NCBI RefSeq assembly: GCF_013167455.1
Contig: NZ_CP038328.1
Length of the DNA stretch: 64,000 bases
Direction: 5' to 3' (one strand)
Source of the DNA: Escherichia coli O157:H7
GTDB taxonomy: Bacteria > Pseudomonadota > Gammaproteobacteria > Enterobacterales > Enterobacteriaceae
Position numbers: made by a program. Positions within the stretch are counted from its first letter, which is position 1. The number at the start of each line of letters is the position of its first letter. Positions 21,001-24,000 of the stretch are shown piece by piece.

Positions 21001-24000
21001 TTGCAGGCGCTTTACATGGGCTGTGTCGTCGTACAGAAACGCATAGATACCATCACCGTCGAAAGATTTAACAGTGATATCAACGAACAGAAGATCACCT
21101 GGTTCGATCGTTCCTGACATGCTGTCACCGCGTACGTTAATGATGCGGATATTTTCTGCCTTCCTGCCATCGAACATGTGACGAGCATCGTCAAACGAGT
21201 ACTCAACCGAGCGTAGGACTTCTACAAACTCACGGTTGATGACACCCGGCCCAGCACTGACTTCTATATCAAGAACGTCAATCTTGAAGTATTTGGAATG
21301 GTTGACAGCAGGCTTCCCTGATTGTTGACCGTCATTTCTCATCGGGCCTATGCCTGATGAGAGCCACTCTGTTCGAACACCCAATGCATTAGCTATTTCA
21401 ACAATTTTTGTTGAGCCGCGTGCGTTGCCGCTTGTCAGTCTCCAGATTGTGGGTTGAGCTACGCCAGACGCCTTTGCAAGAGCGCCTTGAGACATTCCAG
21501 ATTGTTCCATCGCTAGGTTTAAGCGATCAGCAAGAGTTTCTTTTTTCATAAGTTTTAATTTATACGCTTGCGTATTGATGGTCAAAACACGTTTTGCTAT
21601 TGATTGGATTAATACGCATTGCTATTATCCATTCATTGTAATACCAATAGGAATTGATAATGACAAATCAAACCATTCAACTCGCAATCAGTATTACAGG
21701 TAGTCAAAAACGACTGGCAGATCTATGCGGTGTAGCCCACTGTTTGGCGTTGGCTACACGGTGGCGGAATTGATGCCCGCTATGTAATGAAAATTGTCTC
21801 AGCCACTGGTGGAAAGATTAAACCAGCAGATATTCGTCCCGACCTTGCACCATTGTTTAACGCGAGTAATTCTGCCGCCTAAACTGCGGCGTTAACTGAT
21901 AAGGCAATGATTATGCAACCACTTACATACCAACAGACTAGCGGATTTAGCCCGACTGCGGTGATAAATCGTTCTCAAATAAAACAGGTGCCAGGCCACG
22001 AAAAAATCCGTGATGCCGTCCGCGCCTGGTCGGCTGTAGATAATCAGGATGTCGTTGCCACACTCATTGTGAATGAGTATCGGGAGCAGGGCGGCGGCAC
22101 CATCGATTTCCCTGATGATGTCAGCCGTACACGCCAGAAGCTGTTCCGCTTCCTCGATAACAAATTCGATTCTGAAAAATACCGAAATAACGTGCGTGAA
22201 CTGACCCCGGCAATTCTGGCGGTACTACCGCTGGAATATCGCGGTTACCTGGTTGAGCAGGATAGCTTCATGGCTAGGTTGGCTGAAATGGAAAAGGAAC
22301 TCAGTGAGGCAAAACAGGCTGTCATTCTCAACGCACCACGCCACCAGAAACTGAAGGAGATGAGTGAAGGTATTGTGTCGATGTTTCGTGTGGACCCGGA
22401 TCTGGCTGGTCCATTGATGGCGATGGTTACCACCATGTTGGGGGCAATATGACAGGTTTAAAAATGGCGAAAGTCGGTCTGCGGGAACAGAACCGACTTT
22501 CAGGTGCAAATCGTAACACACTCATTGCGGGAGGAATTATGGCAAACACTGCTGAGATATTCAATTTTCCTGTGCCGGATGCGGCACAAAAGGAGCCGCG
22601 CGTGGCAGATCTCGATGATGGTTATACGCGCATTGCAAATGAGTTGCTGGAAGCTGTAATGCTGGCCGGATTAACACAGCACCAGCTTCTGGTCTTCCTG
22701 GCTGTCATGCGCAAAACATATGGCTTTAATAAAAAACTGGATTGGGTGAGCAACGAGCAACTTTCCGAGTTGACCGGGATATTGCCGCACAAGTGTTCTG
22801 CTGCAAAAAGTGTTCTGGTAAAGCGTGGGATTTTTATTCAGAGCGGGCGGAATATAGGCATTAATAATGTGGTCAGTGAATGGTCAACATTACCCGAATC
22901 AGGTAAGAAAAATAAAGTTTACCTGAAAGAGGTAAATTTACCTGAATCAGGTAAGAAAAGTTTACCCAAATCAGGTAAAGGCACTTACCCGAATCAGGTA
23001 AACACAAAAGACAAACTAACAAAAGACAATATAAAACCTTATTCGTCCGAGAATTCTGGCGAATCCTCTGACCTGCCAGAAAACGACCTTCCTGTGGTGA
23101 AAGCGGATGCTGCGATTCAGAACGGCAGCAAGTGGGGGACAGCAGAAGACCTGACCGCCGCAGAGTGGATGTTTGACATGGTGAAGACCATCGCGCCATC
23201 AGCCAGAAAACCGAATTTTGCAGGGTGGGCTAACGATATCCGTCTGATGCGTGAACGTGATGGACGTAACCACCGCGACATGTGTGTACTGTTCCGCTGG
23301 GCCTGCCAGGACAACTTCTGGTCCGGTAACGTGCTGAGTCCGGCCAAACTCCGCGACAAGTGGACCCAGCTCGAAATCAACCGAAACAAGCAACAGGCTG
23401 GCGTGACAGCCGGCAAACCAAAACTCGACCTGACGAACACTGACTGGATTTACGGGGTGGATTTATGAAAAACATCGCCGCACAGATGGTTAACTTTGAC
23501 CGTGAGCAGATGCGTCGGATCGCCAACAACATGCCGGAACAGTACGACGAAAAGCCGCAGGTACAGCAGGTAGCGCAGATAATCAACGGTGTATTCAGCC
23601 AGTTACTGGCAACTTTCCCGGCGAGCCTGGCTAATCGTGACCAGAACGAACTGAACGAAATCCGCCGCCAGTGGGTTCTGGCTTTCCGGGAAAACGGGAT
23701 CACCACGATGGAACAGGTGAGCGCCGGAATGCGTGTTGCCCGTCGGCAGAATAGACCATTTCTGCCATCACCCGGGCAGTTTGTTGCATGGTGCCGGGAA
23801 GAAGCATCCGTTAACGCCGGGCTGCCAAACGTCAGCGAGCTGGTTGATATGGTTTACGAGTATTGCCGGAAGCGTGGCCTGTATCCGGATGCAGAGTCTT
23901 ATCCGTGGAAATCGAACGCGCATTACTGGTTGGTTACCAACCTGTACCAGAACATGCGGGCCAATGCGCTGACTGACGCGGAATTACGGCGCAAGGCTGC

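Follow-up and report, generated by a model that had tools for sequence, protein, structure and literature searches.

Iteron array within the O gene

Within a 64,000-nucleotide stretch of the Escherichia coli O157:H7 contig NZ_CP038328.1, referred to here as the window, a cluster of short repeats lies inside a gene that resembles the replication gene O of phage lambda. The question raised by this locus is whether the cluster is a replication origin of the lambda type and, if it is, whether it is read by lambda's own initiator or by one of another specificity. We conclude that the array and the adjoining A/T-rich stretch very probably constitute the origin of a lambdoid prophage, built to the lambda design of an origin within O but of a different specificity class. 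The features to which the text refers are as follows.

22458..22564, minus strand: oop-like antisense unit (tentative), with a promoter-like site, a hairpin, and a T-run
22539..23468, plus strand: O gene (replication initiator), 309 aa, assigned from the open reading frame, Pfam Phage_rep_O, and lambda O homology
22539..22889, plus strand: part of O coding for the N-terminal origin-binding domain, a predicted winged helix, which carries specificity
22890..22906, plus strand: iteron 1, TTACCCGAATCAGGTAA; extra distal copy with no lambda counterpart
22919..22935, plus strand: iteron 2, TTACCTGAAAGAGGTAA; most divergent copy, aligned to lambda iteron 1
22938..22954, plus strand: iteron 3, TTACCTGAATCAGGTAA; aligned to lambda iteron 2
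22962..22978, plus strand: iteron 4, TTACCCAAATCAGGTAA; aligned to lambda iteron 3
22985..23001, plus strand: iteron 5, TTACCCGAATCAGGTAA; aligned to lambda iteron 4, adjoins the A/T-rich stretch
23002..23039, plus strand: A/T-rich stretch of 38 bp, presumed DNA-unwinding element, with ACAAAAGACAA repeated twice and direct repeat D4 covering the stretch
23040..23468, plus strand: right flank of the origin (TTATTCGTCCGAGAATTCTGGCGAATCC; near-identical to lambda) plus C-terminal half of O (presumed P-interacting domain)
23465..24166, plus strand: P gene (host DnaB helicase loader), 233 aa, with its start overlapping the stop of O

The original prediction had described four to five direct repeats of about 18 bp, at a spacing of about 24 bp, between positions 22891 and 23003. 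The repeats are real, but there are five of them, and each is a 17-bp imperfect palindrome (TTACCYRAAWSAGGTAA, plus strand; starts at 22890, 22919, 22938, 22962, and 22985) with the consensus pattern TTACC-N7-GGTAA. The array extends from 22890 to 23001, which places the predicted ends 1 to 2 bases off, and the predicted spacing holds only roughly, the start-to-start distances being 29, 19, 24, and 23 bp. Iterons 1 and 5 are identical in sequence, and iterons 3 and 4 are each 1 base away from them. Iteron 2 differs from copies 1 and 5 at 3 bases and has AAAGA at its center rather than AATCA. The predicted location inside O was borne out, with the array beginning directly after the part of the O-like open reading frame that codes for the Phage_rep_O domain. 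The same applies to the A/T-rich stretch that was said to follow the repeats: G+C content falls to 25% at positions 23000 to 23039, compared with about 50% in the flanks.

The array was resolved with a gap-free repeat finder and a pattern search. Tandem Repeats Finder saw it only in part (period 19, 2.2 copies) because the spacing of the iterons is irregular. Searching all 64 kb with the exact consensus and up to 3 mismatches returned eight matches, all of which correspond to the five sites on one or both strands, where 0.11 were expected, and 100 dinucleotide-preserving shuffles yielded 0 matches to the degenerate iteron pattern with up to 1 mismatch. Iterons were annotated in none of the database records inspected, the iteron string CCGAATCAGGTAA, allowed to match at any place in the text, occurred in no paper of the literature searched, and Rfam at gathering thresholds gave no match in the O/ori region.

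Replication genes and prophage surroundings

The listed O open reading frame opens at an upstream ATG at 22449; the likely start is at 22539. A GGAGG motif lies 5 nt upstream of this second ATG, and the resulting N terminus, MANTAE, fits the MxNTA starts of the O proteins of lambda, GZ7, SEN34, HK225, and Gifsy-2. The profile PF04492 (Phage_rep_O) matches residues 21 to 115 with an E value of 7e-34 and 116.6 bits, against a cutoff of 28.7. Overall identity to lambda O is 69%, with a 10-residue insertion that is due to the extra iteron 1. For the N-terminal domain, identity is about 46% to lambda O, 65% to P22 gp18 (residues 19 to 117), and 79% to GZ7 O, whereas the lambda O C-terminal domain, compared by tblastn with the related loci, gives about 97%.

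An AF2 model of the N-terminal domain, built from an 11-sequence alignment, has a mean pLDDT of 78 and places helices at residues 72 to 79 and 83 to 95, followed by a beta hairpin at 99 to 108. Foldseek comparison of this model with the PDB returned weak matches only (best E value, 0.009), mostly winged-helix DNA-binding proteins, which we take as consistency with the predicted fold and nothing more. The whole O sequence had no match among PDB chains at E values up to 1, and since no structure matched the O sequence, the assignment of the recognition helix rests on the model and these weak fold matches.

The gene that follows encodes P (Pfam Phage_lambda_P, PF06992; E value, 1e-61). It had been predicted to be identical to its lambda counterpart; it is indeed lambda-like, but at 97% identity (226/233 residues) it is not identical. 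Upstream, positions 20857..21585 on the minus strand encode a cI-like repressor that combines S24 peptidase and HTH domains, and the gene in the cII position occupies 21907..22452 on the plus strand, followed by O and P on the same strand. This places the putative origin in the early right operon, with the immunity region upstream of it.

Opposite the start of O lies a unit resembling lambda oop. Its promoter-like site, TTGAAT-17-CATAAT, runs from 22564 to 22536, and both hexamers align with those of the lambda and P22 p_o promoters. The O ATG lies within the opposite-strand CATAAT -10 hexamer, and the same arrangement is found at lambda p_o. A hairpin (AAAGTCGGT/ACCGACTTT) at 22500 to 22470 is followed by a T-run at 22464 to 22460. 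A terminator scan did not call this hairpin and T-run, owing to a 5-nt gap between the two, and since the scan gave no call, the unit is kept as tentative.

Comparison with known origins

The origin of lambda (ori-lambda) consists of four iterons (ATCCCTCAAAACGAGGGA) and a 38-bp A/T-rich stretch inside gene O. More generally, lambdoid origins combine iterons in the middle of O with an A/T-rich stretch, and the proteins of the O type differ according to origin specificity (PMC7466680, PMC8022706, PMC3349717). The window follows this layout closely. As in lambda, the array comes just after the coding part for the N-terminal domain, its units are palindromes of 17 to 18 bp, and an oop-type promoter overlaps the O start; the right flank, the C-terminal half of O, and P hardly differ from their lambda counterparts (about 97% identity). 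Iterons 2 to 5 align column for column with lambda iterons 1 to 4 as annotated in NC_001416, with start-to-start spacings of 19, 24, and 23 bp here and 20, 24, and 23 bp in lambda and with spacers of the same lengths. In length the A/T-rich stretch equals that of lambda, with which it shares the motif CACAAAAGACA...ACAAAAGA, which also occurs in P22, SEN34, GZ7, HK97, and SEN22.

Where the window departs from lambda, its half-sites read TTACC/GGTAA and not TCCCT/AGGGA, its iterons number five against four in lambda, and the N-terminal domain of O is only about 46% identical. Both the iterons and the N-terminal domain fall outside the lambda specificity class (rep-lambda, comprising lambda, 434, 21, and 933W, with consensus ATCCCTCAAAACGAGGGA). 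A difference in iterons and N-terminal domain alike is what classically marks a change of origin specificity. The prediction of a lambda-type architecture with different iterons agrees with these results, every sequence-level element of it being present and in register with lambda, and the distinct O specificity that had been proposed is likewise supported.

From the A/T-rich stretch rightwards, P included, the sequence is about 95 to 97% lambda-like. Alignments of the lambda-type phages 434, SfI, and ev017 to the window start at about 22989 to 23002 and extend rightwards only, so a mosaic junction can be placed where the iterons meet the A/T-rich stretch.

Among characterized origins, that of P22, located in gene 18, has the closest N-terminal domain (65% over residues 19 to 117). 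It shares the half-site TTACC/GGTAA and the A/T-rich motif, and its predicted recognition helix starts similarly (PTKCS, compared with PHKCS here). The four origin repeats of P22 (PMC8022706) are more degenerate and 1 to 2 bp shorter between the half-sites, as in TTACC-N5-GGTAA. The C terminus of gp18 is unrelated, and its partner is the DnaB-like helicase gp12 rather than P.

Extra iterons are also found in the six-iteron origins of the Stx phages 933W and P27, where, as here, they lie at the end of the array distal to the A/T-rich stretch. Two extra iterons lengthen O by 13 residues in these phages (PMC7466680), compared with 10 residues for one in the window. Unlike the window, 933W and P27 retain the lambda iteron sequence and a lambda-like N-terminal domain. 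Strong binding in 933W and P27 was reported at the four proximal iterons only, and the distal ones were needed for plasmid replication (PMC7466680).

The O gene of Klebsiella phage GZ7 (OP114732) harbors the same five-iteron array, three copies of which equal TTACCCGAATCAGGTAA, together with the same A/T-rich motif and an N-terminal domain 79% identical to that of the window O. In contrast to the window, its O C terminus is unrelated, and the phage has a DnaC-type loader and no P. The N-terminal domain and the iterons therefore form a module that is separable from the part of O that contacts the loader.

Distribution and state of the element

The check set for the prediction, a look for close homologs that lack the repeats and have a functional origin elsewhere, did not refute it: the repeats were retained in 79 of 79 IMG/VR relatives with a contig spanning the array, as well as in GZ7. 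Across 80 IMG/VR loci, the iteron number was five in 77, four in one, and seven in one, and one contig was cut short. The O-P stretch is matched over its full length, unbroken, at 96 to 97% identity by 15 sequenced phages, several of which (Perceval, 4A7, 1W, PhiR34_1, and others) have lab-strain hosts on record. The O/iteron type is present in 16 sequenced phages and was also found in 2,296 of 5,426 complete E. coli genomes; lambda's own class was present in 1,324 of the same 5,426. Phage D2 (OM475427) was considered as a variant in iteron number and rejected: it is a hybrid, carrying a frameshift, between the present O type and a lambda O with lambda iterons, and its record, a partial genome, was left out of the evidence.

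An origin by descent could nevertheless have become an inactive relic in a defective prophage, perhaps serving just as a titrating or incompatibility site against the O protein of incoming phages. Many E. coli prophages with this module have decayed; in strain 203740, for example, the N-terminal part of O is 100% identical, but O is split by IS1, and the immunity region is different. Plasmid-borne lambda iterons and oop do inhibit lambda-type phages (PMC3349717), and downstream of P the window is not lambda-like, with ren absent and morons inserted. Against this, both genes are intact in the window, the O stop codon overlapping the P start codon, all five iterons fit the consensus of the related alleles, and the repressor, the YdaT-like gene, O, and P follow lambda's gene order. 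We consider a relic unlikely, and it would bear on the activity of one copy rather than on the identity of the element.

Covariation of half-sites with the initiator

Other O homologs carry different palindromes at the same location, which vary with residues 81 to 87, the predicted start of the recognition helix, where the window O reads ILPHKCS. The helix start P[HT]KCS pairs with the half-site TTACC in the window, GZ7, and P22; HHTH pairs with TTAGC in SEN34, HK97, and phiES15; and PVKRCN pairs with TCCCT in lambda and epsilon34. This link between helix and half-site is a correlation across 11 non-independent sequences.

Palindromic 17-mers are typical of operator-like sites, and the array might accordingly be read as a set of operators for a protein other than O, such as a phage repressor, an antirepressor-linked regulator, or a host factor. 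This is highly improbable, given that the degenerate iteron pattern, allowing up to 1 mismatch, found no site beyond the array within 64 kb, the cI/cro intergenic region included. Moreover, the array travels with the O N-terminal domain, which GZ7 pairs, along with the iterons, with an unrelated O C terminus and loader, and the half-sites covary with the predicted recognition helix of O.

Conservation of the array as DNA

Measured from the O start, the iterons begin at offsets of 351, 380, 399, 423, and 446 and are thus read in two reading frames. The peptides that result from iterons 1 to 5 are LPESGK, YLKEVN, LPESGK, LPKSGK, and YPNQVN. As the copies lie in two frames, the repeat is conserved as DNA and not as peptide. 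In a set of 51 distinct related alleles, polymorphism with a minor count of at least 3 affected 0 of 85 iteron positions but 4 of 27 positions in the interleaved spacers (Fisher P = 0.003) and 44 of 429 in the C-terminal half (P = 0.0004). The common spacer variant ACT to GTT alters an amino acid, which argues that the protein tolerates change in the array region.

Although the array sits in a linker-like, lysine-rich segment of O and three of its copies code for LP[EK]SGK, the notion of a mere repeated peptide in a flexible linker with no DNA-site role was rejected as very improbable on the reading-frame and polymorphism evidence, given that iterons 2 and 5 encode unrelated peptides in the other frame, every unit is a DNA palindrome, amino acid-changing polymorphisms are common in the spacers and lacking in the iterons, and the columns aligned to the array are lambda's experimentally defined iterons.

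Specificity and proposed mechanism

By analogy with lambda, we infer that O binds the iterons and that the region has origin activity. If the lambda mechanism applies, dimers of the window O would bind each iteron, each half-site being contacted by one winged helix. Assembly of these dimers into an O-some would bend the DNA and destabilize the adjacent A/T-rich stretch. The lambda-like C-terminal domain of O would then recruit the P-DnaB complex, the host chaperones DnaK, DnaJ, and GrpE would release DnaB, and theta replication would begin, aided by rightward transcription across the region.

The O N-terminal domain and the iterons move together as one exchangeable specificity module. Since the junction of this module with lambda-like DNA falls between the iterons and the A/T-rich stretch, the window O should fire its own origin and not that of lambda, and lambda O should not be expected to fire the window origin. 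P and the O-P contact, on the other side of the junction, should be interchangeable with those of lambda. On balance, we favor the broader proposition that the TTACC-N7-GGTAA iteron and its O N-terminal domain represent a specificity class, experimentally uncharacterized and orthogonal to that of lambda, which it exceeds in frequency among complete E. coli genomes, that the distal fifth iteron is functionally required as in Stx phages, and that the class forms, together with P22 and SEN34/HK97, a natural series for the recognition code of the O winged helix.

The layout of this origin is textbook, its version of O and iterons is very common in E. coli, and the current view of lambdoid replication is unchallenged by it. 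The array has modest practical value in marking where the origin lies in a very common class of E. coli lambdoid prophages. It offers a second origin/initiator pair that is expected to employ lambda's P and the host machinery while using a different DNA word. Such a pair could serve in building compatible replicons of the lambda type and in studies of half-site reading by O-type winged helices. The locus also provides a clean case of modular exchange at the point where the iterons give way to the A/T-rich stretch.

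Iteron array within the O gene

The repeats lie within the O gene (22539..23468, plus strand), as originally predicted, the enclosing ORF being a homologue of lambda O, the replication initiator, by alignment and by Pfam (Phage_rep_O, residues 21 to 115, E = 7e-34). The ORF listing places the start of O at 22449, in agreement with the annotation of phage Perceval. We took 22539 as the start because it is equivalent to the MxNTA start common to all O homologues compared, because GGAGG lies 5 nt upstream of its ATG, and because this ATG falls within CATAAT on the minus strand, a hexamer aligning with the -10 of the lambda oop promoter. 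Between 22890 and 23001, a 17-bp imperfect palindrome, TTACC-N7-GGTAA, is present in five copies with start-to-start spacings of 29, 19, 24, and 23 bp.

Iterons within O (start, strand, offset from O start, encoded peptide)
22890, plus: iteron 1, offset 351, LPESGK
22919, plus: iteron 2, offset 380, YLKEVN
22938, plus: iteron 3, offset 399, LPESGK
22962, plus: iteron 4, offset 423, LPKSGK
22985, plus: iteron 5, offset 446, YPNQVN

Copies 1 and 5 both read TTACCCGAATCAGGTAA, from which copies 3 and 4 each differ by one base and copy 2 by three. The original prediction of four to five repeats of about 18 bp at about 24-bp spacing was correct as to the array and its site; the copy number is exactly five, the unit is a 17-bp palindrome, the spacing is uneven, and the coordinates were 1 to 2 bases off. 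A degenerate iteron pattern allowing at most one mismatch gave no further match in the 64 kb outside the five sites and none in 100 dinucleotide-preserving shuffles. When up to three mismatches to the exact consensus were allowed, only the five sites matched (0.11 matches expected in 64 kb). The A/T-rich stretch expected after the repeats was found directly to their right at 23002-23039, with a G+C content of 25% between flanks of approximately 50%, and contains ACAAAAGACAA twice (direct-repeat family D4).

Constraint on DNA rather than on peptide

Using a query without the iterons, 80 IMG/VR loci were fetched whose N-terminal domain shows at least 98% identity. Five copies at identical offsets were present in 77 of them, so the repeats are not absent from close homologues, the outcome that the original prediction had named as counting against it. 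One of the remaining three contigs ends inside the array. The other two carry arrays from locus position 2852: L010 (IMGVR_UViG_2645727555_000002) has four copies, one unit being lost between iterons 4 and 5, and L035 (IMGVR_UViG_2737471837_000010) has seven, the unit spanning iterons 2 and 3 being duplicated. Both variants are consistent with unequal recombination between iterons.

Polymorphism was counted in 51 distinct colinear O alleles, variants with a minor count of at least three being considered common. The iterons showed 6 segregating sites in 85 positions, all rare (minor count below three), compared with 7 in 27 spacer positions, of which 4 were common (common variants, Fisher P = 0.003). 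Common variants occupied 44 of 429 positions in the C-terminal half of O (P = 0.0004 versus iterons), and at third codon positions they numbered 12 of 117 in the N-terminal domain against 0 of 27 in the iterons. In the spacers, a frequent change from GGCACT to GGCGTT alters an amino acid; the protein thus tolerates change here, whereas the palindromes do not. The five copies are spread over two reading frames of O and encode differing peptides, unlike a repeat under selection for its peptide, and this, with the polymorphism pattern, excludes a repeat purely at the peptide level. At the level of sequence, constraint acts on the DNA.

Register with lambda and mosaic junction

Against the lambda segment with iterons annotated in NC_001416, lambda iterons 1 to 4 align with window iterons 2 to 5 with matching spacer lengths (spacing 20/24/23 in lambda, 19/24/23 in the window). 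The A/T-rich stretches are equal in length and share CACAAAAGACA...ACAAAAGA, and they are flanked by almost the same sequence, TTATTCGTC.GAGAATTCTGGCGAATCCTCTGACC. This register, with TTACC half-sites in place of TCCCT, bears out the predicted lambda-type architecture with a different iteron sequence. Every sequence-level defining feature of a lambda-type origin was found in the window; its O and iterons fall outside the lambda specificity class.

From YSSENSGESSD onwards, the C-terminal half of O is near-identical to that of lambda, with scattered substitutions, whereas similarity is much lower over the first ~165 residues (46% identity for residues 1 to 155 by tblastn). A 10-residue insertion relative to lambda O corresponds to one extra iteron. 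The next gene after O, P (23465..24166; Pfam Phage_lambda_P, E = 1e-61), encodes a lambda-type protein, near-identical at 97% rather than identical as had been claimed. In the phage collection, 434, SfI, ev017, and other lambda-type phages align only from approximately 22989-23002 rightwards, which therefore places a mosaic junction where the last iteron meets the A/T-rich stretch. The iterons and the part coding for the N-terminal domain make up one exchanged block.

Related initiators and their palindromes

In Klebsiella phage GZ7, where the N-terminal domain shares 79% identity with that of the window, the same five-iteron array recurs, three of its copies reading exactly TTACCCGAATCAGGTAA, together with the A/T-rich motif; the C-terminal part of O, however, is unrelated, and O is partnered by a DnaC-type loader. 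The N-terminal domain and iterons are thus inherited as a module that can be separated from the part contacting the loader. Recognition of the iterons by some protein other than O is unlikely, since the window has no iteron copies outside the array, and the array moves together with the N-terminal domain of O.

Palindromes at the same place in the gene of other O homologues
P22: TTACC-N5-GGTAA and 16-bp variants
SEN34, HK97, phiES15: TTAGC-N7-GCTAA
lambda, epsilon34: TCCCT-N7-AGGGA
HK225: TTCCC-N6-GGGAA
Gifsy-2: TCCCC-N6-GGGGA
SEN22: GTCAC-N7-GTGAC

An A/T-rich motif of the CACAAAAGA type follows most of these arrays. Compared with the P22 specificity class, the window has the same half-site (TTACC/GGTAA), but the spacing in P22 is shorter.

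An AlphaFold model of O residues 1 to 117 (mean pLDDT 78; above 90 for residues 71 to 110) predicts a winged-helix layout, with helices at 27-42, 47-59, 72-79, and 83-95 and then a beta hairpin at 99-108. Foldseek returned weak matches only, mostly to winged-helix DNA binders (CRP, MarR family, and the DnaD N-terminal domain). Residues 81 to 87, leading into the beginning of the predicted recognition helix, tracked the half-site better than overall identity did: P[HT]KCS accompanies TTACC (window, GZ7, and P22), HHTH accompanies TTAGC (SEN34, HK97, and phiES15; 61, 43, and 58% identical to the window, respectively), and PVKRCN accompanies TCCCT (lambda and epsilon34). With 11 related sequences compared, this association is correlative and does not demonstrate a recognition code.

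Neighboring genes in the prophage

Features around O and P
1201-1281: Peptidase-S11 RNA motif (Rfam)
19143-20750, minus: SIR2_2-domain ORF, 535 aa (E = 1e-23), immediately downstream of the cI-like repressor gene
20857..21585, minus: cI-like repressor (S24/HTH domains), upstream of O
21907-22452, plus: YdaT_toxin-domain gene, 181 aa (E = 1e-29), cII position, upstream of O
22458-22564, minus: oop-like antisense unit, between the YdaT-like gene and O
24371..24718, minus: VCH_CASS14-family ORF, after P
25234..26079 (as listed): Bro-N/P22_AR_C antirepressor-like ORF, overlapping the next two matches
25235-25307: isrK (Rfam)
25332-25419: C4 antisense RNA (Rfam)
26379..26795: HEPN-domain ORF
29763-30011: three tRNA genes (Rfam)
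30124-30316: sRNA STnc100 (Rfam)
30317-30378, minus: AgvB, anti-GcvB sRNA (Rfam)

The oop-like unit carries a promoter-like TTGAAT-17-CATAAT that aligns with p_o, the oop promoter, of lambda and P22, its -10 overlapping the start codon of O. Beyond this promoter-like site come a hairpin (22500-22470), not called by the terminator scan, and a T-run (22464-22460). The SIR2_2 ORF sits where lambda has rexAB and so is probably a prophage-borne defense gene. The YdaT_toxin-domain protein is not a lambda-type CII, although its annotation in records of related phages is cII. Downstream of P, 24371-26795 is not lambda-like and lacks ren. Lambdoid and Stx-type prophages typically have a cluster like this one (tRNA/STnc100/AgvB) in their late-regulatory region.

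Distribution

The O-P stretch was found at full length, in a single piece and at 96 to 97% identity, in 15 phage records. In a sixteenth, phage D2 (L006, OM475427), it was covered to 87% in two pieces. The D2 O, annotated as two CDSs (501-1522), switches inside the N-terminal domain from the type of the window to that of lambda, has lambda iterons, and is frameshifted where the two types meet. The genome record is partial, and this O is either a genuine recombinant or a chimera that arose in assembly. No iteron annotation was found in the records inspected, and a literature search found no paper containing the iteron string. The principle behind this origin is already known. Among 5,426 complete E. 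coli genomes, the N-terminal/iteron type of the window occurs in 2,296 and that of lambda, the rarer, in 1,324. In all 73 of the 80 IMG/VR loci whose contig was long enough to score both, the type of the window was joined to a C-terminal part of O and a P that are both of lambda type.

Proposed initiation mechanism

The prophage in the window may be a decayed one whose origin no longer fires; its O and P are both intact, whereas IS1 interrupts the same O in E. coli strain 203740. For an active origin, a mechanism can be drawn by analogy with lambda (established knowledge; PMC7466680, PMC3349717). O dimers would bind the palindromic iterons via the winged-helix domain and form an O-some, bending the DNA and destabilizing the adjacent A/T-rich stretch. 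The lambda-like C-terminal domain of O would bring in P-DnaB, and theta replication would begin once host chaperones had freed DnaB. Stx phages, whose O is 13 residues longer owing to two extra distal iterons, offer a precedent for the fifth, distal iteron of the window; their extra iterons are weakly bound in vitro, yet a P27-derived plasmid with mutated distal iterons gave no transformation (PMC7466680). We infer that initiation by this O at its own iterons would be orthogonal to that of lambda.
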